Positions 6,601 to 55,707 of a stretch of 64,000 nucleotides of DNA are shown here, one piece after another. The position numbers were made by a program, and so were the translations under genes. Source of the DNA: Candidatus Bacteroides intestinavium (lineage in GTDB: Bacteria; Bacteroidota; Bacteroidia; Bacteroidales; Bacteroidaceae); contig DWZE01000089.1 in the NCBI GenBank assembly GCA_019118325.1, positions 1,197 to 65,196 of the forward strand, given 5' to 3'. Position 1 is the first letter of the stretch. The number at the start of each line of letters is the position of its first letter. The notes beneath the pieces are model-generated. The model did no database searches. It saw only the letters and a list, made by a program, of their open reading frames with translations, and had not been told where the DNA came from.

Positions 6601-8076
6601 ATGACAGAACAGACCTATACCATCCGCCTTGCTGGCGCCGTGGCCCGCAACCCGCAGGTGCGGCTGGCCGCTCCGGTGGATTTGGAACTGAAGCCGTCGG
6701 AGCACGTGGCCATTGCCGGCGACAACGGGGCGGGGAAGTCCCTCCTCGTGGACCTGATGACCGGACGTGCGCCCCTGCTGGGCGGGAGCGTGGCTTATGA
6801 CTTCCGCCCGGCGGCGGACGATGCCCTATATAATAATGTGAAGTACATCGCCTTCCGCGATACCTACGGGAGCGCCGACGCCAACTATTACTACCAGCAA
6901 CGCTGGAATGCGCACGACCAGGACGAGGTCCCCCCGGTGCGCGACCTCTTGCCGCCGCCCGCCGACCCGGACCTCGCCACCTGCCTGGCCGAACTGTTCC
7001 GCCTGGACGAGCTGATGGACAAGCGCATCCTCCTGCTCTCCAGCGGCGAAATGCGCCGTTTCCAGCTGTACAAGGCCCTGGCGGGCGCGCCGCGGGTGCT
7101 CATCGTGGACAATCCGTTCATCGGGCTGGACGCCCCGACGCGCGAGATGCTGTCCGAACTGCTGGGCGAACTGGCGCGGACGGGCATGATACAGATGGTC
7201 CTCGTGGTGTCGCGTCCGGAGGACATCCCTCCGTTCGTCACGCACGTCGTCCCCGTGGCGGACAAGACCGTCCTGCCCAAGGTCGCTCTGGCGGACTACC
7301 TGGCGGCGCGCCGCCCGCTGCCGACCGGCGCGGACGGGGATGCGGAGCGGCGCATCGCGAGCCTGCCGGCCGGGCAGGCGGACTACGGGCCGGACGAGGT
7401 GGTGCGCCTCAGCGGGGTCAGCATCCGCTACGGCGGCCGCACCATCCTGGACCGTCTGGACTGGGTGGTGCGCCGGGGCGAGTGCTGGGCCCTGTCCGGC
7501 GAGAACGGGGCAGGGAAGTCTACGCTCCTCAGCCTGGTCTGTGCCGACAACCCCCAGTCCTACGCCTGCGACATCTCCCTCTTCGGGCGGAAGCGGGGCA
7601 CGGGCGAGAGCATCTGGGACATCAAGCGGCACATCGGCTACGTCAGCCCCGAGATGCACCGCGCCTACCTGAAGAACCTCCCCGCGCTGGACATCGTGGC
7701 CAGCGGCCTGCACGACAGCATCGGGCTCTACCGCCGTCCGAAGGCGGAGGAGCTGGAGGCGTGCCGCTGGTGGATGGACACGTTTGGCATCGGCCCCCTC
7801 CACGAGCGTCCGTTCCTCACCCTCTCCAGCGGCGAGCAACGCCTGTGCCTCCTGGCCCGCGCCTTCGTCAAGGACCCCGCGCTGCTGGTCCTGGACGAGC
7901 CGCTGCACGGGCTGGACACGCGCCGCCGCGCCCTCGTGCGACGCATCATCGAGGCCTTCTGCCGCCGGCCGGGGAAAACGCTGCTGATGGTGACCCACTA
8001 CGAGGAGGAGCTGCCGGCGTGCATCGACCACCGGCTGCGCCTGTCGCGGCGCGGAGGCGGCGTCCTCCGGGACTGA
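6601..8076 (+). CDS. ModF-like duplicated ABC ATP-binding protein
   Basis: Two Walker A motifs (GDNGAGKS, GENGAGKS), LSSGE signatures, ESIWDIKRHIGYVSPE. Confidence 0.88.
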   Translation: MTEQTYTIRLAGAVARNPQVRLAAPVDLELKPSEHVAIAGDNGAGKSLLVDLMTGRAPLLGGSVAYDFRPAADDALYNNVKYIAFRDTYGSADANYYYQQRWNAHDQDEVPPVRDLLPPPADPDLATCLAELFRLDELMDKRILLLSSGEMRRFQLYKALAGAPRVLIVDNPFIGLDAPTREMLSELLGELARTGMIQMVLVVSRPEDIPPFVTHVVPVADKTVLPKVALADYLAARRPLPTGADGDAERRIASLPAGQADYGPDEVVRLSGVSIRYGGRTILDRLDWVVRRGECWALSGENGAGKSTLLSLVCADNPQSYACDISLFGRKRGTGESIWDIKRHIGYVSPEMHRAYLKNLPALDIVASGLHDSIGLYRRPKAEELEACRWWMDTFGIGPLHERPFLTLSSGEQRLCLLARAFVKDPALLVLDEPLHGLDTRRRALVRRIIEAFCRRPGKTLLMVTHYEEELPACIDHRLRLSRRGGGVLRD

Positions 8077-8144
8077 GCCGGGGGCACTTCGGGACTGAAC
8101 CGGGGGTACTTCGGGACCGGGGCGCGCCTGGTCCCGAAGTAGGA

Positions 8145-8213
8145 GGGAAATCAGTGCCACTGGTTTATAGAATCAGTGCCACTGATTATAGGAATCAGTG
8201 CCACTGATTTCCC
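8145..8213. repeat. Three tandem palindromes AATCAGTG-C-CACTGATT with 22 bp period
   Basis: Copies start at 8149 (one mismatch), 8171 and 8193. An 11 bp-stem hairpin precedes them at 8108-8140. Confidence 0.9.
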
Positions 8214-8428
8214 GTCCGGTCCCGAAGGCGCCGCGTCCCGTCCCGGAACCCGGACAGAGCCACTCCGCAACCCGGTCGGGTCCGCCACGGAATCCGTCCG
8301 GAGGCCCTCCGCGGGCTGGGGTTTTATGCTTTTTTAAGGAAACGGGACAACTCCCGGCCGCGCCGTCTTGCGGATTGGATGAAAAAGCGTACATTTGCGG
8401 CAGATTACACAGACAAACAGAAAACGAG

Positions 8429-10297
8429 ATGAAAGAAAGATTGCTGGCCTTCGTCAAGACCTACGGGCTGCTGGTGCTGCTGTTCGTGGCGCAGAAGCCC
8501 TTGTTCATGCTATTCCATGTGGAGATGTACGCTGACTGCCCGGCGGCGGAGTGGGGGCGTGTCGTGTGGCACGGCCTGCCGCTGGACCTGAGCGTGGCGG
8601 GCTACCTGACGGCCCTTCCGGCCCTGCTGCTGGCCGCCTCGGCGTGGTCGTGGGGGCGGTGGCTGACGTGGGCCCTGCGCGTGTGGTTCGGGGTGGTGTC
8701 GCTGCTGCTGAGCGTGGTCTTCATCCTCGACCTCGTGCTCTACGAATACTGGGGGTTCCGGCTGGACACCACGCCGTTCTTCTACTTCTTCTCCTCGCCG
8801 GGCGACACGCTGGCCAGCGCCTCGGGCGGCACGGCCGTGCTGGGCTTCCTGATGATGGCCGTATGCACCGTGCTGGTCTATGCCCTGTTCCACTACTGCG
8901 TCCTGCGGGCCGTGGAGCGCTTCCGCCGTCCTGCGCGCCGGGCGGCCGCGTGCGGGGTGCTGGCGCTGCTGGCGGGCGCGCTGTTCATCCCCATACGCGG
9001 GGGCTTCACCGTCTCGACCATGAACACGGGCAAAGCCTATTTCTCGTCCAACCAGCGGCTGAACCACGCCGCCATCAATCCCGCCTTCAGCCTGCTGGAG
9101 TCCGCCTTCAAGGAGAGCGACTTCGCCTCGCAATACCGTTTCCTCCAGGCCGATGACGCCGACAAGCTCTTTGCCGACATGCTCGACCCCCAGGTGCGGT
9201 CCCTCCGGGCCCCGGCGCAGCCGCGCGACAGCCTGCACAGCCTGCTGCGCACGCCGCGACCGGACGTGCTCGTGGTCATCCTGGAGAGCTTCTCGTCACA
9301 CCTGATGGGCACGCTGGGGGGCGACTCCACCGTGGCGCCCTGTCTGGACTCCATCGCCGCGGGCGGCGTGCTCTTCACGCGGATGCACGCCAACAGCTTC
9401 CGCACGGACCGGGGCCTGGTGTCCATCCTCAGCGGCTATCCCGCCCAGCCCTCGACCAGCATCATGAAGTATCCCCGCAAGTCGCAGTCCCTGCCCTCCA
9501 TCGCCGGGACACTCCGCCGCGAGGGCTACCGGACGCGCTACTACTACGGGGGCGACGCTGATTTCACGAACATGCGCTCCTACCTGATGTCTTCGGGCTT
9601 CGAGGACATCGTGTGCGACCGCGACTTCCCCGTGCAGGACCGCCTGAGCAAGTGGGGCGTGCACGACCACCTCGTCTTCCGCCGCCTGCTCGACGACCTC
9701 CGCGCCGACACCCTCACCGAGGGCCGCGCCCCCCGCTACCGCGTCGTCCAGACCTCCAGCAGCCACGAGCCCTTCGAGGTGCCCTATCGCCGCCTGGCGG
9801 ACGACCGCATGAATGCCTTCGCCTACACGGACAGTTGCGTGGGCGATTTCGTGCGGCGGCTGCGCCGGCTGCCGCAGTGGGAGAACACGCTGCTCGTCCT
9901 CGTGCCCGACCACCAGGGAGCCTGGCCCGAGGCCCTCAACAACCTCTCGCCCGAACGCTACGAGATACCCCTCATCCTCGCCGGAGGCGCCGTGCGCCGC
10001 CCGCGCCGCATCGACACCGTGGGCTCGCAACAGGACATCGCCGCCACGCTGCTGGCCCAGCTGGGACTGCCGCACGGGGACTTCACCTTCAGCAAGGACC
10101 TGCTGGACTCCCGGTCGCCCCACTTCGCCTTCATCACCTTCCCCGGCGCGCTGGGCCTGGTGACGGACGAGAACCGCATCTTCTATGACATCAATGCCGA
10201 ACAGGCCGTCACCATGCTGGGCCCCCATCCGGAGAACGCCCTGGTCCATGCCATGGCCTACCTGCAAAAATTATATGACGACTTAGCTTCCCGATAG
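8429..10297 (+). CDS. LTA synthase family / sulfatase-like membrane protein
   Basis: Five N-terminal TM segments, ILESFS, catalytic Thr in SFRTDRG, SSHEPF, PDH. TACATTTG promoter box at 8390-8397. Confidence 0.9.
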   Translation: MKERLLAFVKTYGLLVLLFVAQKPLFMLFHVEMYADCPAAEWGRVVWHGLPLDLSVAGYLTALPALLLAASAWSWGRWLTWALRVWFGVVSLLLSVVFILDLVLYEYWGFRLDTTPFFYFFSSPGDTLASASGGTAVLGFLMMAVCTVLVYALFHYCVLRAVERFRRPARRAAACGVLALLAGALFIPIRGGFTVSTMNTGKAYFSSNQRLNHAAINPAFSLLESAFKESDFASQYRFLQADDADKLFADMLDPQVRSLRAPAQPRDSLHSLLRTPRPDVLVVILESFSSHLMGTLGGDSTVAPCLDSIAAGGVLFTRMHANSFRTDRGLVSILSGYPAQPSTSIMKYPRKSQSLPSIAGTLRREGYRTRYYYGGDADFTNMRSYLMSSGFEDIVCDRDFPVQDRLSKWGVHDHLVFRRLLDDLRADTLTEGRAPRYRVVQTSSSHEPFEVPYRRLADDRMNAFAYTDSCVGDFVRRLRRLPQWENTLLVLVPDHQGAWPEALNNLSPERYEIPLILAGGAVRRPRRIDTVGSQQDIAATLLAQLGLPHGDFTFSKDLLDSRSPHFAFITFPGALGLVTDENRIFYDINAEQAVTMLGPHPENALVHAMAYLQKLYDDLASR

Positions 10298-10299
10298 AC

Positions 10300-10956
10300 A
10301 TGACCGACCTCTTGCAACTCCTCAACCAATGGGACACAGACCTGCTGCTCGCCATCAACGGCTGGCACAACGGGTATTGGGACACTTTCATGTATGCCTT
10401 CAGCGGCAAGTGGGTGTGGGTGCCGATGTATGCCGCCCTGGTGTACCTGCTGGCCCGCAACCTGCCCTGGCGCACCACCCTGTGGTGCCTCGTGGGCGTG
10501 GCCCTGTGCATCACGTTTGCCGACCAGGTGGGCGCGTCCCTCATCCGCCCCTGGGCCGAACGCCTCCGTCCGGCCAACCCGGAGAACCCCATCTCGGACC
10601 TGGTGCACATCGTCAACGGCTACCGGGGCGGGCGCTACGGCTTCCCTTCGTGCCACGCGGCCAATACCTTCGGGCTGGCCTTCTACCTGATGCTCGTCGT
10701 CCGCCGCAAGGCGTTGACAGGGCTGCTCGTGGCCTGGGCGTTGGTGACGTGTTACTCACGGGCCTACCTCGGCGTGCACTATCCCGGCGACCTGCTGGCG
10801 GGAGCCTTGCTGGGACTGGCGGGGGCGGCCCTCTGCTACACGCTGTTCCGCCTGGTGGCACGCTACGAACGGCCCCGCCGCTTCCGGCAACTCTGGGTGC
10901 CCGCGCTGGTGTGCGGACTGACCGTGGCCGCGATGCTGGTGTACGCTTGTTTCTGA
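10300..10956 (+). CDS. lpxF: PAP2 phosphatase, probable lipid A 4'-phosphatase LpxF
   Basis: PAP2 motifs RLRP, FPSCHA, SRAYLGVHYPGD. Resembles B. thetaiotaomicron LpxF in sequence and in lying next to a sulfatase-like gene (from recall). Confidence 0.7.
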   Translation: MTDLLQLLNQWDTDLLLAINGWHNGYWDTFMYAFSGKWVWVPMYAALVYLLARNLPWRTTLWCLVGVALCITFADQVGASLIRPWAERLRPANPENPISDLVHIVNGYRGGRYGFPSCHAANTFGLAFYLMLVVRRKALTGLLVAWALVTCYSRAYLGVHYPGDLLAGALLGLAGAALCYTLFRLVARYERPRRFRQLWVPALVCGLTVAAMLVYACF

Positions 10957-10971
10957 CAAATACCTATATAT

Positions 10972-12150
10972 ATGGAGAAGATAGAGAATATGAGAACGCT
11001 GGGCGGGTGGATGAACGACCAGCTCACGTCGTGGGGACTTCCCTCCCGTTACGCCGACAGTATCGACGAAGTGTTGGTGGCCGTGCTTATCATCCTGCTG
11101 GCCATCGGGTTGAATTATTTCTTCCAGGCCGTGGTGGCCGGAGGCATCAAGCGGTATGCACGCCGCTCGGCGCGGATGTGGAGCACGCTGCTGGTGGAAC
11201 GCAAGGCGGTGCACCACCTCTTGCACGTGGTGCCGGGCATCCTGATTTACCTTCTCCTGCCCCTGGCCTTTGTCAAAGGCGACGGGATGCTGGACTTCTC
11301 GCGCCGGGTGTGCATGATTTACATCATCGTGGCCATCCTGCTGTCCGTCAACGCCCTGCTGCTGGTGATGCTCGATATCTACAACTCCAAGGAGGTGCGC
11401 AAGAACCATCCCATCCGGGGCTTCGTGCAGGTGCTCCAGGTAGTGCTGTTCTTCGTGGGCGGCATCCTGGCCGTGTCGGTGCTGATAGACAAATCGCCTG
11501 TTTACCTTTTCACCGGCCTGGGCGCGTCGGCTGCCGTGCTGATGTTGGTCTTCAAGGACAGCATCCTGGGCTTTGTGGCAGGCATCCAGCTGTCGGCCAA
11601 CGACATGCTGCGCATCGGCGACTGGGTGACCCTGCCCAATGGCTCGGCCGACGGCGTGGTGCAGGAGATTACCCTCAACACGGTGAAGATACAGAACTGG
11701 GACAATACCATCACCACCATCCCTCCCTACACGATGGTCAACAGTACCTTCCAGAACTGGCGGGGCATGCAGGAGAGCGGGGGACGCCGCGTGGACAAAC
11801 GCATCTGGCTCGACCTGGACACCGTGCGCTTCTGCCCGGCTGACGAGGTGGAGCGCCTCAAGCAGGACTTTCCCCTCTTGGCGGATTATGCTCCCGAGTC
11901 CCAACCTACCAACTCCCAACTCTACCGTACCTACATCGAGCGCTACCTGATGAGCCTCCCTGTGGTCAACCAGGACCTGGACCTCATCATCGCCCAAAAG
12001 GAGCCGACAGAGCATGGCCTGCCCATCCGCGTTTACTTCTTCTCCCGCGTCAAAGCCTGGCGGGAGTACGAACGCATCCAGTCTGACATTTTTGACCACC
12101 TGTTGGCCGTGGCGCCCCGTTTCGGACTGAAGCTTTACCAGGGGATATAA
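10972..12150 (+). CDS. Mechanosensitive ion channel, MscS family (YbdG/MscM-like)
   Basis: GLGASAAVLMLVFKDSILG, NDMLRIGDW, NWDNTITTIP, NWRGMQESGGRR. Confidence 0.93.
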   Translation: MEKIENMRTLGGWMNDQLTSWGLPSRYADSIDEVLVAVLIILLAIGLNYFFQAVVAGGIKRYARRSARMWSTLLVERKAVHHLLHVVPGILIYLLLPLAFVKGDGMLDFSRRVCMIYIIVAILLSVNALLLVMLDIYNSKEVRKNHPIRGFVQVLQVVLFFVGGILAVSVLIDKSPVYLFTGLGASAAVLMLVFKDSILGFVAGIQLSANDMLRIGDWVTLPNGSADGVVQEITLNTVKIQNWDNTITTIPPYTMVNSTFQNWRGMQESGGRRVDKRIWLDLDTVRFCPADEVERLKQDFPLLADYAPESQPTNSQLYRTYIERYLMSLPVVNQDLDLIIAQKEPTEHGLPIRVYFFSRVKAWREYERIQSDIFDHLLAVAPRFGLKLYQGI

Positions 12151-43389: not shown

Positions 43390-44496
43390 ATGGGCTTATT
43401 AGAATTCAATAAACTCCCCATCAACACCTTGGTGGGGGCCGACTGGAAAACCTTCAAGGCGGTGACCGCCGGACGACAGATTGACCCGGCCTACCGCAAC
43501 AAGTATCGGTTGACCAAGGCTGTCTGCCGTTTGCTTTCTACGCTGACTTCCCTGCAGGACAAGCGCTACGAAAAACTCCTGGCCGACCAACCCTTGGAGC
43601 ACGACCCGCTCTTCATTCTCGGTCATTGGCGCAGCGGTACGACTTTCGTGCACAATGTCTTCTCGTGTGACAGCCATTTCGGCTACAACACCACTTATCA
43701 GACCGTCTTCCCGCATCTGATGATGTGGGGACAACCGTTCTTCAAGAAAAACATGAGCTGGCTGATGCCCGACAAGCGTCCGACGGACAACATGGAACTG
43801 GCCGTGGACCTGCCCCAGGAAGAGGAGTTCGCCTTGGCCAACATGATGCCCTATACCTATTATAATTTCTGGTTCTTCCCGAAATATCAGCAGGAGTATG
43901 CCGAGAAGTACTTGCTGTTCAATAACATCACGCCGGAGGAACTGAAGCTGTTCGAGGAGACCTTCATCAAGCTCATCAAGATATCTTTGTGGAATACGCA
44001 CGGCACCCAGTTCCTCAGCAAGAACCCGCCGCATACCGGGCGTGTCCGTGAACTGGTCAAGATGTTCCCCAATGCCAAGTTCATCTATCTGGTGCGCAAT
44101 CCCTACACCGTCTTCGAGAGCACGCGCAGCTTCTTCACCAACACCATCCAGCCGTTGAAGTTGGAAGATATCGCACCGGAAGAACTGGAGCAGAACATTC
44201 TGTCCGTCTACGCGAAACTTTACCACAAGTACGAAGCCGACAAGTCGTGCATCCCTGCGGGCAATCTCATCGAGGTGAAGTTCGAGGATTTCGAGGCCGA
44301 TGCCATGGGTATGACCGAGCATATCTACCAGGCCCTCTCTCTGCCCGGATATCCCGAATCGCGCGCCGCCATCGAGAAGTACGTGGGCGGCAAGAAGGGC
44401 TATAAGAAAAACAAGTACAAGTACGACGACCGTACCGTGCGCCTCGTCCAGGAGAACTGGGGCTTTGCACTGGAACAGTGGAAGTATGAAATCTGA
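43390..44496 (+). CDS. PAPS-dependent sulfotransferase, probable BT_0416-like sterol/cholesterol sulfotransferase
   Basis: 5'-PSB motif GHWRSGTT, KNPPH, 3'-PB motif RNPYTVFES. Recalled similarity and downstream synteny (PCMD...OmpA-ruvX-def) match B. thetaiotaomicron BT_0416. Confidence 0.85.
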   Translation: MGLLEFNKLPINTLVGADWKTFKAVTAGRQIDPAYRNKYRLTKAVCRLLSTLTSLQDKRYEKLLADQPLEHDPLFILGHWRSGTTFVHNVFSCDSHFGYNTTYQTVFPHLMMWGQPFFKKNMSWLMPDKRPTDNMELAVDLPQEEEFALANMMPYTYYNFWFFPKYQQEYAEKYLLFNNITPEELKLFEETFIKLIKISLWNTHGTQFLSKNPPHTGRVRELVKMFPNAKFIYLVRNPYTVFESTRSFFTNTIQPLKLEDIAPEELEQNILSVYAKLYHKYEADKSCIPAGNLIEVKFEDFEADAMGMTEHIYQALSLPGYPESRAAIEKYVGGKKGYKKNKYKYDDRTVRLVQENWGFALEQWKYEI

Positions 44497-44498
44497 TC

Positions 44499-44586
44499 AA
44501 TGAAGAATGAAGGGTGAATAATGAAGAATTTGCCGGATGCTCATTCTTCATCATCATTCTTAGTTCTTCATTCTTAATTCTTCATT
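44499..44586. repeat. Palindromic 7 bp-periodic (AATGAAG) element
   Basis: AATGAAGAATGAAG... left arm and ...TTCTTCATTCTTAATTCTTCATT right arm. A left arm alone occurs at about 37379-37410. Confidence 0.75.
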
Positions 44587-44592
44587 AAAACG

Positions 44593-45558
44593 ATGAAACT
44601 AAAGTCTTATTTAGTATGCCTTGTCCTCACCCTCCTGGCTTGTACCCCTCTGACGGCCCAGGAAGAGCGGGTGGAGGAAATCCCTTTCGGGAATATGGAC
44701 CAGTGGATTGACCGGCAAATCAAGGAGTCCGCCATCATTGGCGGAGACACGAAGCATGTCTATGCCATAGGCCCCACGCAGACTATCACCAACAGTGAAG
44801 CCTATCGGAATCTGGGCGGCTCGCCCTGGGCATCGTCCAATGTGATGGCCCGTGTGGCCGGTGTCACCAAGACGAACACCTCGGTTTTCCCGGAGAAGCG
44901 TGGGAACGGCTATTGCGCACGGATGGATACGCGGATGGAGAGCGTGAAGGTGCTGGGACTGGTCAATATTACGGTACTGGCCGCCGGTTCTGTTTTCTTG
45001 GGAGAGATGCACGAGCCTATCACCAGCACCAAAGACCCGATGCGCAAACTGGATACCGGCATTCCTTTCAGCAAGAAGCCCAAGGCCATCCGCTTCGACT
45101 ATAAAATCCGGATGTCCGACCGTCCCAACCGCATTCGTGCCACCGGCTTCAGCCGCATCAAGGACGTGGAGGGACGTGACTTTCCCGAGGTCAACCTGTA
45201 TCTCCAGAAACGTTGGGAGGACAAGGATGGCAACATCTATGCCAAGCGCGTCGGCACCATGGTGGTACGTTATGACAAAACCACGCCAGACTGGCAGAAC
45301 AATGCCACGTACACCATCCTTTACGGCGACATCACGAATCACCCGGACTATAATCCCGACATGATGCGTCTGCAGGTGCAGGAGCGCTTTGCCGTCAACA
45401 GTAAGGGCGAGAGTGTGCCCATCCAGGAAGTGGGGTGGGGAACGAAAGACGATGTGCCTACACACTTGCAGTTGCAGTTCACCTCCAGTCATGGCGGCGC
45501 TTATATCGGCTCGCCCGGCAATACGTTCTGGGTGGATAACGTGCGGATGGTATATTGA
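44593..45558 (+). CDS. PCMD (putative carbohydrate metabolism domain) secreted protein
   Basis: Signal peptide, SPWASSN, LAAGSVFLG, PTHLQLQFTSS, GSPGNTFWVDNV. Confidence 0.8.
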   Translation: MKLKSYLVCLVLTLLACTPLTAQEERVEEIPFGNMDQWIDRQIKESAIIGGDTKHVYAIGPTQTITNSEAYRNLGGSPWASSNVMARVAGVTKTNTSVFPEKRGNGYCARMDTRMESVKVLGLVNITVLAAGSVFLGEMHEPITSTKDPMRKLDTGIPFSKKPKAIRFDYKIRMSDRPNRIRATGFSRIKDVEGRDFPEVNLYLQKRWEDKDGNIYAKRVGTMVVRYDKTTPDWQNNATYTILYGDITNHPDYNPDMMRLQVQERFAVNSKGESVPIQEVGWGTKDDVPTHLQLQFTSSHGGAYIGSPGNTFWVDNVRMVY

Positions 45559-45654
45559 TGCTTGACTATTAACGATTTGTACGCTCATGATGCAGGCCCA
45601 TGCATACGCCGCAGACATCGAACGTCAATATCCTTCCTATGTGTCGTAGGGGGG

Positions 45655-45738
45655 GATATCTCCGTCCGTGTCCGGTGATATCCCCGCCCGTGTCCGGAGA
45701 TATCCCCGCCCGCGCCCGGAGATATTCCCGTCCGTGCC
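45655..45738. repeat. Four tandem 22 bp units (GATATCCCCGCCCGTGTCCGGA consensus)
   Basis: Units at 45655, 45677, 45699 and 45721. Confidence 0.9.
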
Positions 45739-45920
45739 TCTTGTAAGCCAACAATTTTCATGGATGTGAGTTGGAGTGTTTAGGAGGCTTGTGGTGGGCG
45801 AAGCCAAGAAAATGTAAGAATAGGTCGCTGACTTTCTGCCGGAATGGCGGAAAAATGTTCAATCCGCTGACATCTTATTAAAAATAGGGAAAAGCCGACG
45901 TTATTTTTTTCGTATATTTC

Positions 45921-45951
45921 TTTGGTGTAATGAAAAAAGTACCTACATTTG
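45921..45951 (+). promoter_or_regulatory. Consensus Bacteroidetes promoter for the outer-membrane operon
   Basis: TTTG (45921-45924), 19 bp spacer, TACATTTG (45944-45951). Confidence 0.75.
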
Positions 45952-46018
45952 CAACGTGTTTTGTATCGCTTAGATGCAAAAAGAAATGAAAAAAATGAGG
46001 TGTAACAGATACTCGGAC

Positions 46019-47248
46019 ATGAGAAAGTGCCTGACTACTAAAACAATAATACGGCTTGTGGCGTTCTTTTTATGTGGCTTGACAACCCTGAATGGAGTTG
46101 CCCAGACAGGCGAGCAGACCGTAGATGCATTGGTGGAGATGGGCTTTGAGAATGTTGGGTGGACGGAAGACGGCGATGAGCGTGTGTATGTCCTGCAGAA
46201 TTCGGCATACCGTTTGCAGGGGGTAGGCGTCGGGAAGGCTGTCGATATTATTCAGGAAATGGGCTTGCCGGAGGACAAACCGTGCCGCATCATTGTCTTG
46301 GATAACAACGTGCCTCAGGTTTCTCTTTACTATCACCCGATAAAGGGTGATACCGTTTCACTGGCCGAACGGCGGGATTGGAACGTCAGTTATGATCTCG
46401 GCGGTTCCTGGCAGAAGGTGCGGAAGGTAAAGAAGAAAAATAGTTCTTTGTTTAAGGTTGATATCGTGGTGTATCCGGATTTGTCGTTGCAAAATCTGGT
46501 GCTTACGCAAATATATACCGTGTTGTTTAATTTGGATCCGACTATTGAGGTGTCCTTGTGGAAGGGAGCGAAATTAAATGCGCAGGTAATCATACCTATT
46601 TATAACGAATATGGTGATTCGTATGGCCAGATACGGCAGGGATATATCGGACTTTCCCAACAGGTGCGATTGCCTTACAATACGTTTGTAACGGCGGCAA
46701 TCGGGACATTTACAAATAATCGTTGGGGAGGCGACTTGAGCGCGATACACTATTTTAAGGATGAGCGTTTTTCCGTAGAGGGACGAATCGGTTATACCGG
46801 TCGGTCTCGCTTCGTGAATTGGCGATGGAAAGTAAGTCCGTTGAAGCGGTTGACGTGGACGTTGGGAGGTGGCTTTTATTGGCCTAAATATAATACGCAG
46901 TTCAAACTGAAAGTAGAACAGTATTTGTTGAGCGAGAAAGGCATCCGCTTCGAAATGACGCGAAACTTCCGTTATACGTCTATCGGTTTCTATGCCATGA
47001 AAGTGCAGCATGCAGGTAATAATGGGTATAATGGCGGTTTCCGTTTTCAGGTGAACTTGCCTCCGTATAAGTACAAACGGAAAGGGTATATTCCGCGAGT
47101 TTTGCCATCCCGCTCGTTCGGATTGGCATATAATGCCGGAAATGAACGTTATTATGGGAAAAGCTATAGTGCGACATTGGGTAATACCATCGCGCAGGAA
47201 AATAGCTTGAATCCCTATTTTATAAAGAGTGAATTGTTGAATTTTTAA
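46019..47248 (+). CDS. YjbH/GfcD-like outer-membrane protein (middle domain plus C-terminal barrel half)
   Basis: Signal peptide, GFENV...NSAYR alpha/beta domain, amphipathic aromatic beta strands, terminal Phe. Family from recall and start codon uncertain. Confidence 0.65.
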   Translation: MRKCLTTKTIIRLVAFFLCGLTTLNGVAQTGEQTVDALVEMGFENVGWTEDGDERVYVLQNSAYRLQGVGVGKAVDIIQEMGLPEDKPCRIIVLDNNVPQVSLYYHPIKGDTVSLAERRDWNVSYDLGGSWQKVRKVKKKNSSLFKVDIVVYPDLSLQNLVLTQIYTVLFNLDPTIEVSLWKGAKLNAQVIIPIYNEYGDSYGQIRQGYIGLSQQVRLPYNTFVTAAIGTFTNNRWGGDLSAIHYFKDERFSVEGRIGYTGRSRFVNWRWKVSPLKRLTWTLGGGFYWPKYNTQFKLKVEQYLLSEKGIRFEMTRNFRYTSIGFYAMKVQHAGNNGYNGGFRFQVNLPPYKYKRKGYIPRVLPSRSFGLAYNAGNERYYGKSYSATLGNTIAQENSLNPYFIKSELLNF

Positions 47249-47259
47249 TTTATATTGAG

Positions 47260-48177
47260 ATGAACATGAAAAGTAAATTCTTCGGGCTTAATGCCAAGTT
47301 GGCATTAGCTGTGTTGGCAGTTGGTACGATGTTTACAGGCTGCTATGATTCTGAGAACGGTGACGTGGTTAAGCCGTATGAACCGCTTCCCGCAACGTAC
47401 TATGTAATGGGTACTATTACGGATGCTACAACTGGTGATGTGTTGCCAAAAGCAAACGTGACAGTTAATGGTGCATCGGTTGAGTTGAATAGTGACGCTA
47501 GTTATTCTGTAGAGGGACAAAGTGGTCCTAACACTGTGGCTGTACGGTTGGATGGTTATAAGGAAGTAAGTCGGACCGTTGATATTCCTACTTTGAGCGA
47601 TGGTCAGTCTTATACGGCTGTTGTGAATGTGGCATTGACTCCCAATGCTGTTGCGCCTGAATTGGAGGTAGAAGTCGAAGTTGTGACGACTGTAAATCGT
47701 GAAGAAATCAAATTGGACAAGGATGGCAAATATGGTCAAGAGCCTGCTCCCGGATTGGATTTGATGGCTGAGGAAGAAGCTGCTGTCTTTACCAGAAACT
47801 TTGATGTTGAAGCCGGTTATGACTTTGTGATGAATCCTGAGAATCCTTCTGAAGAGATGCTTGCTTATGTTCAGAACTACTTGGGTGAGAACTATGGTCA
47901 GAGTGAGGTAGAAACAATCACTGTGCCCTACACCTTCCAAATTCCTTCTTGGAACGCATTGGATTATGTAAGCATTACTTATATGTACGTGACTACTACT
48001 TACACTTTCACTTCTTCTGAAAATGAGACGTGTGTGGTGAATGTCAACGGCATTACAGGCTATGCATTCGGTACGGCATTTATTCCTAACCACAATTATT
48101 CTCACAGCCACGGTCATGGCCATGGTCACGGTGATAATATCAACGCTGGTGGTGGTATCTTGACTCCTGAAATGTAA
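47260..48177 (+). CDS. DUF3869-like surface lipoprotein with His/Gly-rich C-terminal tail
   Basis: Lipobox MFTG-C then acidic YDSENGD, Ig/CarboxypepD_reg-like domain (GTITDATTG), tail HNYSHSHGHGHGHGDNINAGGG. Confidence 0.8.
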   Translation: MNMKSKFFGLNAKLALAVLAVGTMFTGCYDSENGDVVKPYEPLPATYYVMGTITDATTGDVLPKANVTVNGASVELNSDASYSVEGQSGPNTVAVRLDGYKEVSRTVDIPTLSDGQSYTAVVNVALTPNAVAPELEVEVEVVTTVNREEIKLDKDGKYGQEPAPGLDLMAEEEAAVFTRNFDVEAGYDFVMNPENPSEEMLAYVQNYLGENYGQSEVETITVPYTFQIPSWNALDYVSITYMYVTTTYTFTSSENETCVVNVNGITGYAFGTAFIPNHNYSHSHGHGHGHGDNINAGGGILTPEM

Positions 48178-48217
48178 TTTGGAGAGTTAAGAACGCTTGG
48201 AGAAAGCAATGGAGGAT

Positions 48218-48973
48218 ATGATAATGTTGAGGAAGATTTGTTTAATAGGCTTGGCTTTATGTTTCCCTCTCTTGCTTTCTGCTCAATTGACGTATGGAAC
48301 CACCGGTCTTCTCCATGCTCCTTCGGCAGAAATGCAGCGGGATAAGACAGTGTTGATCGGTGGTAACTTTTTAAACAAGGAGATTACTCCTCCTACGTGG
48401 TACTATCATACGTACAATTACTTTCTGAATGTGACCATATTCCCGTGGTTGGAGGTGGCATATACATGTACACTTTTCCAAGCGGAGGCTTTAGGGTTAA
48501 AACCTTATGGTTATAGCGGATTTACCAATCAAGATCGGTATTTTTCTTTCCGGTTGAGATTGTTGAAAGAAGGTCAGTTTTGGAAATACATGCCAGCGGT
48601 TGTAGTGGGAACTTCGGATCCTTATACAGAGTCTGGCGACGGACAGATTTCGTCCACAGATGGCAATGGTTATTTTTGTCGCTTTTATGTGGCTGCTACC
48701 AAGTTCATCCCTGTGGGGAAAAAGGAAGAGATAGGTGTTCACCTCTCTTGGCTTTTTAACCATCGAAACGATTATCCGTTGAACGGTCCGGCTGTAGGAC
48801 TGACTTGGAATCCTTCCTTTCATCCGCAGTTGAGGTTAATTGCAGAGTATGATGCCAAAGATTTTGCTTTGGGTGCCACCTATTTGCTTTTCAACCATTT
48901 GCATGCGCAGGTAGAATTGCAAAGAATGAAGTACTTTACCGGCGGTCTCACTTTTGTGCTACATCTGAAGTGA
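48218..48973 (+). CDS. YjbH domain protein (N-terminal barrel half)
   Basis: Signal peptide then YGTTGLLHAPSAEM (YjbH N-terminal GxxGLLxxPxA motif), DRYFSFRLRLLKE, IAEYD. Confidence 0.75.
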   Translation: MIMLRKICLIGLALCFPLLLSAQLTYGTTGLLHAPSAEMQRDKTVLIGGNFLNKEITPPTWYYHTYNYFLNVTIFPWLEVAYTCTLFQAEALGLKPYGYSGFTNQDRYFSFRLRLLKEGQFWKYMPAVVVGTSDPYTESGDGQISSTDGNGYFCRFYVAATKFIPVGKKEEIGVHLSWLFNHRNDYPLNGPAVGLTWNPSFHPQLRLIAEYDAKDFALGATYLLFNHLHAQVELQRMKYFTGGLTFVLHLK

Positions 48974-49027
48974 AAAATGGTCGGGGCAAATAAAATAAAG
49001 AGTTGAATATTTAAAAACAAAAAAACG

Positions 49028-50215
49028 ATGAAAAGTAAATTAGTTATATTTTCTTTACTGTTAGCAGGTACAGCAATGACTGTAAATGCTCAGACAAAAG
49101 AGAAATACGTCAGCGAGAAAGCCACAGACAATATCTTTGTGAGCGTGACTGGCGGCATTTCTATGGTGAATTCCGGTAAGAGCGAAGGCAAGTTTGGCAA
49201 GCCCGCTCCTCACATCACAGTTTCTCTGGGTAAGTGGTTTACTCCGGTTTGGGGAGTTCGTGCACAGGGCGGCTTGTGGAGAGCTAACTTTGATACGGAA
49301 CATTCTCTCGGTACATTTGATACCAATGGGTTGCCAGTAGGTCAATCTGCAGATTATGACAAGAATGTGGGTCAGATTCGTTTGGATGCTATGTACAACC
49401 TTTCCAATGCTATTTGGGGGTACAATCCTGACCGTATCTTCAATCTGTCTGTCTTTGCAGGTCCGGGCTTGACGATTGCCAAGACGGCTAACGGTATGGT
49501 TCAGTATGCCGAGGACGGTAAGTCCTGGGCACGAGTTCCCGCCGGTGATCAAAAGGGACGTGTATATGTGAACGGTTCCGTAGGTCTGCAGGGTAAATTC
49601 AACGTCAGCGACTATTGGGATATCGATATTGAAGCTCGTGGTGAGTTGGCTCCTTCTTACTTGGGTCACTTGTCTACGGCCAAGACCGTGGGTGGTATCT
49701 ATGTAGGTGCTGGTGCTACGTATACTTTCGGCGGCAAGAAGTTTGTTCCCTATGTGTCCAAGGTTGATGTCGATGCTTTGAATGACGAAATCAATAAGTA
49801 TAGAAGTGAATTGGAGCAAGCTCAGACGGATTTGGCTAATGCCAAGAACGCTGTTGCTACTGCACAACCCGAGATTAAGGAAGTTGTGAAGGAAGTTCAG
49901 ACTGCAGGTCCGCGTGCTATCTTCTTCAAGATTGGTAGCGCTCGTTTGGATGACTACGGCAAGGTTAATATTCAGTTGGCTGCCAAGGTGCTGAAGGCAA
50001 ATCCGGACAAGAAGTACAGAGTGGCCGGTTATGCTGATAAGGCTACGGGTAGTGCTCCTTTCAACCAAAAGTTGTCTGAAAAGCGTGCTCAGGTGGTTTA
50101 CGATGCCTTGATTGCTGAGGGCGTTAACAAAGACCAACTCGAACTCGTCGGCTTTGGTGGAACGGAGAACATGTTCGGCAAGAATTTCTTGAACCGTTGT
50201 GTAATTCTTGAGTAA
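49028..50215 (+). CDS. OmpA family protein (beta-barrel, coiled coil, peptidoglycan-binding domain)
   Basis: GKWFTPVWGVR barrel, IFFKIGSA, GYADKATG, NQKLSEKRA, NRCV. Confidence 0.93.
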   Translation: MKSKLVIFSLLLAGTAMTVNAQTKEKYVSEKATDNIFVSVTGGISMVNSGKSEGKFGKPAPHITVSLGKWFTPVWGVRAQGGLWRANFDTEHSLGTFDTNGLPVGQSADYDKNVGQIRLDAMYNLSNAIWGYNPDRIFNLSVFAGPGLTIAKTANGMVQYAEDGKSWARVPAGDQKGRVYVNGSVGLQGKFNVSDYWDIDIEARGELAPSYLGHLSTAKTVGGIYVGAGATYTFGGKKFVPYVSKVDVDALNDEINKYRSELEQAQTDLANAKNAVATAQPEIKEVVKEVQTAGPRAIFFKIGSARLDDYGKVNIQLAAKVLKANPDKKYRVAGYADKATGSAPFNQKLSEKRAQVVYDALIAEGVNKDQLELVGFGGTENMFGKNFLNRCVILE

Positions 50216-50248
50216 TCCTTCCGTAGTATTGGTATAATAATAGAAGAG

Positions 50249-50283
50249 AGCGGGGCATCCGGAATGGGATGCCCCGCTTTTTT
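50249..50283 (+). terminator. Rho-independent terminator closing the outer-membrane operon
   Basis: AGCGGGGCATCC/GGATGCCCCGCT stem followed by a T run. Confidence 0.88.
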
Positions 50284-54660: not shown

Positions 54661-55707
54661 TCAGTTCAAGCTGTTAATTTCCTGAACGGAAAGGCCGGTA
54701 ATTTCCGCAATCAAATCTACAGGGATTCCTTTGGCTTTCATGCTACGGGCATTCTGCCGATTGGCCTGTTCAATACCTTCTGCCAAGCCCTCCGTACGAC
54801 CTTTCGCCAAGCCTTCTGCATGACCTTCTGCCAAGCCTTCCGTACGACCTTTCGCCAAACCTTCTGCACGACCTTCCGCCAAACCTTCTGCACGACCTTC
54901 CGCCAAGCCCTCCGCACGACCTTTTGCCAAGCCTTCCGCATGACCTTCCGCACGACCTTCTGCCAGGCCTTCCGCACGACCTTCCGCACGTTCTGTGAAG
55001 ATGTTGTCACGCAATATCACAATATTGTCCAAATGACGATAATAAGCATTCAGTTCGTTCTTGGTCATACGATCCAACTTCAGACGCTCCTTCACGTCTT
55101 CCAAGCCGGGAGCTGATGCTCCTTCCGGTACGTCACCCGTATTGAGATAATAAATCCATTCTTCCAACGGGGTTTTGGCCACCTGATTGAAGTCGTTTAC
55201 CTTTAATATATAGTATTCGGGATAGAGCTGGCTGACTGCATCCACCTTGAAGGTTTGCTTCTGGAAAGGACTCAGTTCCAACAGTTCGCCGTTGTGGATG
55301 CCACGGAATTCCGTTTTCCCGTGGTAGACAATATCAGTACCGTGTCCCAACGAGAAATAGACGATGTTCACGCTGTAGACTTTGCGCACCTTATCGTAAC
55401 CCTCCCCCCGGTTGATGTACTCGGTCACAAGCTTGGATGCACCGAACAACATACGCTGGAAATAGGCGTACTCATTGTTGTTCTGCACTTCTATCAGGAT
55501 CAGTTCGCCTTTACTGTTTTCGGCCAAGATATCCACTCGGTTATACTTGTCGAATTCATCTGCCTGATTGCTTTCGCTTTCCAGCAGCTTACGGATAACG
55601 ATGCGTTCGCCCAGCAAGGTCGTAAGCAAGCCTTCCAGCACGCCAAAATTTACCTTGTTGCGAAGCAGACGTTTCATCGCCCAATCAAAACGGATGTAAT
55701 TGCCCAT
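54661..55707 (-). CDS. Rpn family recombination-promoting nuclease / PD-(D/E)XK putative transposase
   Basis: IRFDWAMKRLL, RVDILAEN...LIEVQN, EEWIYYL, xAEG repeats, IAEITGLS tail. TACTTTTG promoter box at 55738-55745 (minus). Confidence 0.92.
   Translation of the reverse strand: MGNYIRFDWAMKRLLRNKVNFGVLEGLLTTLLGERIVIRKLLESESNQADEFDKYNRVDILAENSKGELILIEVQNNNEYAYFQRMLFGASKLVTEYINRGEGYDKVRKVYSVNIVYFSLGHGTDIVYHGKTEFRGIHNGELLELSPFQKQTFKVDAVSQLYPEYYILKVNDFNQVAKTPLEEWIYYLNTGDVPEGASAPGLEDVKERLKLDRMTKNELNAYYRHLDNIVILRDNIFTERAEGRAEGLAEGRAEGHAEGLAKGRAEGLAEGRAEGLAEGRAEGLAKGRTEGLAEGHAEGLAKGRTEGLAEGIEQANRQNARSMKAKGIPVDLIAEITGLSVQEINSLN
54775..54990 (-). repeat. 18 x 12 bp coding tandem repeat ([RLH][AT][EK]G) inside rpn
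   Basis: Counted from the translation: RAEG RAEG LAEG ... LAEG. Confidence 0.9.

Follow-up and report, generated by a model that had tools for sequence, protein, structure and literature searches.

The Slam (type XI) systems combine a TPR domain with a 14-stranded barrel and move a cognate lipoprotein to the cell surface; dedicated routes for surface export of lipoproteins are poorly defined in the Bacteroidota. Here we describe a four-gene operon in a 64,000-nucleotide stretch of DNA (the window) from Candidatus Bacteroides intestinavium (assembly GCA_019118325.1, contig DWZE01000089.1, positions 1,197 to 65,196) that encodes two putative outer-membrane barrels (genes 1 and 3), a lipoprotein from the gene between them (gene 2), and an OmpA-family protein (gene 4; Table 1). 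The closest described relatives of the barrels are YjbH and GfcD of Escherichia coli (PF06082), encoded in the yjbEFGH and gfcABCDE-etp-etk operons, with homology over both halves and the same predicted layout. Published predictions make GfcD a double-barrel protein (PMC8346858, PMC8592465, PMC9603273), whose single chain would form a 12-strand barrel, an alpha/beta domain and a 13-strand barrel (PMC8592465). PMC8592465 also treats the transport substrate of GfcD/YjbH as an open question, reports that the capsule phenotype is disrupted whichever gfc gene is lost, and proposes O-antigen-modified GfcA as cargo.

The locus departs from the E. coli arrangement in having two genes, in variable order and sometimes unlinked among relatives, and in lacking GfcA/B/C-like genes, the partner being instead a large and variable lipoprotein with a conserved tail that is phase-variable in relatives; as with YjbH/GfcD, relatives are often found in polysaccharide loci. 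Tyrosine-recombinase switching of surface proteins, and the pairing of a lipoprotein with OmpA, recall the SusC/SusD shufflons and the BT1927-type S-layer/OmpA loci of Bacteroides, which use other barrel families, whereas here a crossover within the YjbH-type gene connects entire operons to a single promoter. Slam would be a functional parallel, with a barrel beside a cognate lipoprotein that carries a C-terminal signal, although the model of gene 1 combines an alpha/beta domain with 13 strands where Slam has 14, a second barrel is present, and the candidate signal is a short peptide tail and not a domain; no TPR domain was matched by Pfam in gene 1 or its family members. The component families are already known and one member locus has been published as phase-variable; the literature searched, which covered few subscription papers, yielded no account of a split form accompanied by a tailed cargo, nor of the cassette switch. 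The original B. fragilis genome papers on inversions may list this region. Neither the conserved tail nor the phase variation in relatives was part of the original prediction for this DNA.

Two halves of YjbH/GfcD as separate predicted barrels

Gene 3 matches the Pfam YjbH family (PF06082) over positions 3-101 (E 1.5e-12), and its family profile aligns with residues 30-227 of E. coli YjbH (E 1.9e-22) and 31-237 of GfcD. The sequence of gene 1 alone has no significant Pfam match; its family profile (118 sequences) aligns with YjbH 314-657 (probability 97.7) and GfcD 310-653 (probability 97.4), and PF06082 is matched by 91 of the 118 family members. These ranges agree with the original prediction, which took genes 1 and 3 to be complementary, order-swapped parts of YjbH/GfcD. 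AlphaFold2 models show an alpha/beta domain and 13 barrel strands for gene 1 (predicted local distance difference test, pLDDT, 92) and 12 strands for gene 3 (pLDDT 86), as counted from DSSP of the predicted models. Because these chain models match the predicted double-barrel layout of GfcD, the split appears to fall between two whole barrels, and on this modelling genes 1 and 3 are the two halves of YjbH/GfcD made as separate proteins, each a predicted closed barrel. Both barrels do not lie in one polypeptide here: there are two open reading frames (ORFs) with separate signal peptides and the lipoprotein gene between them.

The best fold match of gene 3 in Foldseek, and the one that it resembles, is the protein exporter FapF (E 6e-6, template modelling score, TM, about 0.42-0.47). 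No solved homologue was found for the gene 1 model in the fold search, Foldseek returning only generic porins (TM about 0.3) and VIA-align giving OmpG, CymA and PelB, none of which stands out, at Z 12.5-13.6. The polysaccharide channels PelB (Z 12.5, root-mean-square deviation 4.2, 204 aligned residues) and PgaA (Z 11.1, 4.3, 194 aligned) are thus among the matches and rank below or beside unrelated porins.

Variants of both families were encountered. A gene-1 subtype of about 300 amino acids without the periplasmic domain occurs in polysaccharide loci (L161-L165, L188, L189), where the lipoproteins mostly end in H-[TN]-G-G. Fused double barrels were considered, and the four matches of 603-686 amino acids among the best 150 representatives are by eye LysM/coiled-coil fusions, no search having been aimed at longer forms. 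N-terminal LysM-like and coiled-coil regions were recognised by eye in gene-1 family barrels P0311, P0322, P0335 and P0355, where they are possibly a built-in wall tether. A 487-amino-acid gene-3 relative (L049:4684-6147; profile E 4.7e-29) has a C-terminal end that is OmpA-like by eye and, judged by sequence, is possibly a natural gene 3/gene 4 fusion. ORFs that resemble insertion sequences by eye (L051:7754-9130, L199:3704-5132, L167:3195-5276) interrupt gene 1 in two genomes and occupy the gene-3 position in a third. BT2437/BT2438, considered as candidate relatives, could not be linked to the family; BT_2438 is annotated as an outer-membrane protein barrel.

A conserved tail on otherwise unrelated lipoproteins

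Gene 2 has a lipobox, a DUF3869 N-domain (PF12985; Pfam E 1.2e-13, above the cut-off) and a His-rich C-terminus, the last being shared with its PDB matches 3G3L (BF1687) and 3KOG (BVU_4064), found at E 5.5e-13 and 1.8e-8. PMC4387736 describes a transthyretin-like domain, a toxin-fold-like beta domain in which a helix replaces the insertion loop, and a His-rich end, and proposes adhesion or lipid binding for DUF3869 lipoproteins; barrels, operon and inversion go unmentioned in its accessible text. A toxin role for gene 2 was set aside, its sole basis being the fold likeness reported there, in which the membrane-insertion hairpin has become a helix. The operon gives these two structural-genomics orphans a context, and the lipoprotein in the promoter-joined cassette of a relative (L198) matches 3G3L at E 2e-211.

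Alignment of 55 gene-2 relatives leaves only Cys28, Gly115 and the three tail glycines invariant. More broadly, a tailed lipoprotein (with a His/Asn-x-Gly-Gly-type end) lies within 2.7 kb of 164 of the 183 gene-1 copies, a count that left out three loci (a fragment, one without a barrel, and a 200-base piece), and when the barrels are clustered at 50% identity the tail is found with 35 of 41 clusters, as compared with 9 of 1956 background ORFs, the motif having been defined after the tails were seen and some genomes having been fetched twice. The 19 copies lacking such a neighbour include 13 that lie within about 2.6 kb of the locus end on one side and six that are well flanked. Thirty-six sampled tailed lipoproteins fall into 10 groups unlinked by BLAST, and the lipoproteins beside gene 1 range in length from 108 to 1051 amino acids; self-comparison of seven long cargo proteins by BLAST revealed no internal repeats and so gave no sign of an elongated repeat structure. 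Full-length lipoprotein matches were present in exactly six of 12 genomes of a genus sample, the six that carry the barrel; at the family level the profile search was swamped by weak matches to long proteins, and full-length matches alone were used. A genome-wide sorting role for the tail is unlikely: 27 of the 4654 ORFs of the genome containing the window (G000) fit a permissive version of the tail pattern, and of these gene 2 alone was seen by eye to carry a lipobox as well.

One relative (L040:5641-7385) has two different lipoproteins, of 108 and 424 amino acids, behind a single barrel, both ending in H-D-Q-G-G-G-K. The tail also has a likeness, by eye only and not counted as evidence, to the Gly-rich ends of YjbE/GfcA. 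In some strain contigs the lipoprotein N-domain (47438-47565) is densely altered, with the neighbouring sequence nearly unchanged.

Co-occurrence and predicted contact of the barrels and the lipoprotein

Profile searches recovered gene-1 relatives in 93 of 138 genomes of the genus, 20 of 121 of the family, 25 of 301 of the order (with a narrower profile) and 14 of 401 of the phylum. Members of the gene-3 family are present in those same 93 of the 138 genus genomes, including the ones in which they are unlinked from gene 1; 17 of the 19 genomes with gene 1 and no gene 3 nearby carry gene 3 elsewhere or farther away, and gene 3 was found in none of the 31 gene-1-negative genomes, 20 of which were defined with the narrower profile. 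These pairing counts include non-independent kin, and the pattern spans many families. Gene 3 had at first seemed dispensable, since 25 of the 131 well-flanked gene-1 copies have none next to them, an idea overturned by the genome-wide co-occurrence. The expectation that the genes co-occur across genomes is supported. OmpA, which accompanies 102 of the 131 well-flanked copies, is not a constant part of the module. In gene 4, Pfam identified a C-terminal OmpA domain (PF00691) at residues 299-385 (E 1.2e-17); the barrel and linker N-terminal to it were assigned from reading the sequence and from relatives.

The complex of gene 1, gene 3 and the lipoprotein was predicted with an interaction prediction score from aligned errors (ipSAE) of 0.60 (runs 0.60, 0.61 and 0.47), all three controls scoring 0.00, among them the one in which gene 1 was replaced and gene 3 kept. 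The runs have at least 40% of contacts in common, with a partner pLDDT of at least 71. Among reference pairs, 116 of the 157 solved ones reached this mark, as did 2 of the 215 that were mismatched, but only 18 of those solved pairs, along with both mismatches, did so at an ipSAE of 0.60 or below. The modelling suggests that gene 1 is the partner of the lipoprotein, and the link between barrel and lipoprotein proposed at the outset is likely, given the conserved tail together with this weak complex support.

Probable cassette inversion in relatives and a fixed cassette in the window

At this chromosomal site, eighteen of the 138 genus genomes contain a full gene 1 together with one or two inverted, 5'-truncated copies within 15 kb, and four more are broken there, the tally having been made by hand from a table. 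Ten of the 18 loci were mapped. In these, two or three cassettes are arranged around an integrase-like gene and the 5' end of gene 1, and every cassette includes the 3' barrel part of gene 1, a different tailed lipoprotein, gene 3 and OmpA. The three recombinases scanned by Pfam all belong to the integrase family. All 13 silent gene-1 copies begin to match the full copy at codon 84-91, a common site, and the contigs of two genomes (G816, G932) start at this crossover site. A cassette with a 503-amino-acid lipoprotein (97% identical) is silent in L173 and joined to the promoter in L174, which, like the contig starts, is an indirect sign of switching. It is therefore likely, on comparison of these loci, that relatives exchange their lipoprotein by DNA inversion, a phase-variation system that is likely an addition for common gut bacteria. 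The window has no recombinase ORF upstream of the operon and a single cassette, and the crossover site has drifted; the genome, at 82% completeness, yields one gene-1 match. As no inverted repeats were found flanking the promoter in the window, it does not appear to be invertible, and by its sequence this genome keeps one fixed version of the lipoprotein.

A published member of the family is found in B. thetaiotaomicron. Locus L170 comprises an integrase-like gene, a promoter region with 23-nucleotide inverted repeats on either side, relatives of gene 3 and gene 1 (33% and 29% identity, respectively), and a tailed lipoprotein. The N-terminus of this lipoprotein is identical to the BT_0294 signal sequence printed in the supplement of PMC11554821; this identity ties BT0292-94 to the family, and by sequence BT0292-94 is the same module. 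It differs from the window in having no OmpA gene, and the window copy in turn has a fixed promoter and is of a different subtype. BT0292 and BT0293 are labelled 'YjbH domain-containing' in PMC10434189. Porter et al. (bioRxiv 10.1101/521070) report that BT0292-94 is phase-variable and rises 79-156-fold in acapsular cells after long phage exposure in mice; the accessible text of the preprint describes it only as a phase-variable lipoprotein locus, with neither a mechanism nor a mutant of the locus.

Association with polysaccharide loci

The absence of polysaccharide genes near the operon, noted in the original prediction, is upheld, in that none was recognised among the three upstream genes by Pfam or in the downstream ORFs by eye; homologues of GfcA/B/C and of wza-wzb-wzc likewise had no Pfam match in the four operon genes and three upstream genes. 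Relatives present a different picture. Each of the eight unlinked copies of gene 3 that were examined has wza, wzc, capD-like, sugar-dehydrogenase or glycosyltransferase genes around it; in several lineages the full module is located within a polysaccharide locus or at its end (L140, L146, L147, L150, L161-L165, L181, L182, L184, L185, L187-L189); and gene 1 alone follows wza-wzc(-phosphatase) genes in L044-L047. Because relatives and unlinked gene-3 copies occupy such loci, the lack of polysaccharide genes beside this operon does not detach the family from capsule biology, and the claim that the module is something other than a capsule exporter is too strong and only partly right. A module at the end of a capsule locus (L181:9678-13287) is followed by GldL-/GldM-like motor genes and a gene for an OmpA-domain protein, which is unexpected because the genus concerned is not known to glide.

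Proposed export and display, and alternative roles

We favour, tentatively and with somewhat less than even confidence, the reading that the barrel pair is a dedicated system that exports the co-encoded tailed lipoprotein and displays it on the cell surface, because unrelated and varying cargo proteins keep a short terminal motif, the 13-stranded barrel travels along with them, and the predicted contact needs that barrel. The lipoprotein would arrive at the inner face of the outer membrane, where the 13-stranded barrel of gene 1 would recognise the His/Asn-x-Gly-Gly tail and pass the polypeptide outwards starting from its C-terminus; the lipid anchor would reach the outer leaflet through a seam of the kind expected when a barrel has an odd number of strands, the 12-stranded barrel of gene 3 would act as a required partner, and OmpA, where present, would tie the assembly to the wall. 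Selection at the surface is indicated by the invertible cassettes, the strain variation in the lipoprotein N-domain and the rise of BT0292-94 under phage, and the lipoprotein, once displayed, probably serves as a variable shield or antigen on which phage and host exert pressure.

Several observations weigh against export by the barrel pair. The complex prediction was graded weak and returned no interface, so that a tail within the barrel is not demonstrated; at least six well-flanked gene-1 copies (L039, L044, L046, L047, L048, L121) have no tailed lipoprotein; some gene-1 relatives (L161-L165) lack the periplasmic domain; and polysaccharide genes surround many copies of the module. Acidic residues after the lipobox Cys form the general surface-export signal pattern of the Bacteroidota, and such residues are present in 110 of 119 Bacteroides-type cargo lipoproteins. 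Moreover, according to PMC11554821 a luciferase fused to nothing more than the BT_0294 signal peptide is released efficiently, and a dedicated exporter is for that reason perhaps not needed. The literature searched contained no transport or localisation experiment on the module. The split form has the merit that the barrels are already separate at the level of genes, and it suggests candidates for both the cargo and a short signal; since a model organism carries a switchable copy (BT0292-94) selected under phage, the question is testable with ordinary mutants.

More speculatively, and with a confidence below that in the export reading itself, the YjbH/GfcD double barrel in general may be a protein translocon and not a sugar pore, which in the Bacteroidota would have become a dedicated lipoprotein secretion system with a short C-terminal His/Asn-x-Gly-Gly signal, an antigenic-variation shufflon and a role in phage escape, with GfcA/YjbE as the enterobacterial cargo, possibly tying capsule to the surface.

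Among the alternatives, the one that survives best, though we consider it unlikely, is that the barrel pair couples a surface polysaccharide to a protein, a role already proposed for GfcD, the 12-stranded barrel handling capsule or exopolysaccharide and the tailed lipoprotein on the 13-stranded barrel serving as carrier or anchor, as suggested for GfcA. The polysaccharide loci that surround unlinked gene 3, lone gene 1 and full modules are what this would predict, and the capsule phenotypes of gfc losses, the proposal of GfcA as cargo (PMC8592465) and the presence of PelB and PgaA among the fold matches, for all their unremarkable ranking, are in keeping with it. The window locus and the invertible cassettes, however, are without polysaccharide genes, BT0292-94 rose in a strain that has no capsule (bioRxiv 10.1101/521070), and the freely varying body of the cargo points to the protein itself as the selected surface feature.

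It is more improbable still that the lipoprotein surfaces by the general acidic-signal route and docks on the barrels by its tail. The two would then make up a lid-and-channel uptake unit, with metal ions captured by the His-rich tail as one conceivable substrate. The acidic residues noted above are consistent with such docking, weak complex support fits it as well as it fits export, and repeats such as His-Gly and His-Asp-Ser are common in Bacteroides tails, for which PMC4387736 speculates on metal binding; most non-Bacteroides tails, by contrast, have a single His. The length span of the cargo fits a transient export signal better than a fixed lid, for which a protein of up to 1051 amino acids would be awkward, changes under iron limitation are opposite and non-significant for BT0292 and BT0293 (PMC10434189), and nutrient need alone does not account for phase variation of whole cassettes. 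Finally, the single heterodimeric barrel of the original prediction, to which genes 1 and 3 would each contribute a part, is very improbable, for although the two correspond to complementary parts of one E. coli polypeptide, co-occur closely, and have in an earlier GfcD prediction a precedent in a single 26-stranded barrel (PMC8592465), each chain folds confidently alone as a predicted closed barrel with its full strand count, and the split lies between the two barrels predicted for GfcD.

Organization and setting of the operon

The consensus for Bacteroides promoters is TTTG-N19-TAnnTTTG, to which the window has six matches, as compared with a chance expectation of 0.51. One of these precedes four same-strand ORFs that confirm the operon (Table 1), and with the export signals and the terminal hairpin it bears out the arrangement first proposed, of a promoter, four co-oriented exported genes and a terminator. 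The products of genes 1, 3 and 4 carry type I signal peptides, each followed by Gln, and that of gene 2 carries a lipobox (Cys28), all called by reading the sequence without a predictor. Gene 1 may instead start at the ATG at 45995, since relatives start there. A lower guanine-plus-cytosine (GC) content than the flanks, also claimed, is seen relative to the upstream 4 kb (0.512) and the genome (0.546), the operon standing at 0.447, but not relative to the downstream 2 kb (0.438).

Table 1. Features of the four-gene operon, in window coordinates.
Feature	Coordinates	Strand	Remarks
Promoter, Bacteroides-type (-33 TTTG, -7 TAnnTTTG)	45921..45951	+	TTTG-N19-TAnnTTTG match, without flanking inverted repeats
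Gene 1: signal peptide, periplasmic alpha/beta domain and predicted 13-stranded barrel; middle/C-terminal part of YjbH/GfcD	45974..47248	+	
Crossover site position, as inferred from invertible cassettes of relatives (codon 99, P-x-x-K-P-C)	46268..46284	+	5 of 17 bases differ here from the commonest site
Gene 2: DUF3869 lipoprotein, Cys28 then acidic residues; related to PDB 3G3L (BF1687) and 3KOG (BVU_4064)	47260..48177	+	
Gene 2 tail: His-Gly repeats and Asn-Ala-Gly-Gly-Gly, residues 282-299, six residues short of the stop	48103..48156	+	Three Gly invariant in 55 aligned relatives
Gene 3: predicted 12-stranded FapF-like barrel with GxxGLLxxPxA start; N-terminal part of YjbH/GfcD	48224..48973	+	
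Gene 4: OmpA-family protein with C-terminal OmpA (peptidoglycan-binding type) domain	49028..50215	+	
Intrinsic-terminator-like hairpin, 17 pairs and T run	50244..50283	+	

Directly upstream (43390-45558) are sulfotransferase and PCMD-domain genes, which are conserved neighbours of the operon in many relatives, and on the other flank are genes that by eye are resolvase-like and deformylase-like; because the same flanks recur in many relatives, the comparison indicates that the location is an old site rather than a recent island. The nearest named relatives of the operon are Bacteroides, and the stretch is present in chicken-gut and faecal sequencing runs. Contigs from RNA libraries of three studies span the operon and are uninformative on transcription level or strand.

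Between the PCMD gene and the promoter (45652-45739) are four head-to-tail copies of a GC-rich, partly self-complementary 22-nucleotide unit, which could be a repetitive extragenic palindromic (REP)-like element or a terminator remnant. Elsewhere, positions 7001-11000 of the window have a GC content of 64-70% as compared with a window mean of 53.5%, and an ORF on the minus strand at 54661-55707, which we take to resemble Rpn/PD-(D/E)XK-type proteins, ends in a tandem AEG(R/L/H) repeat.

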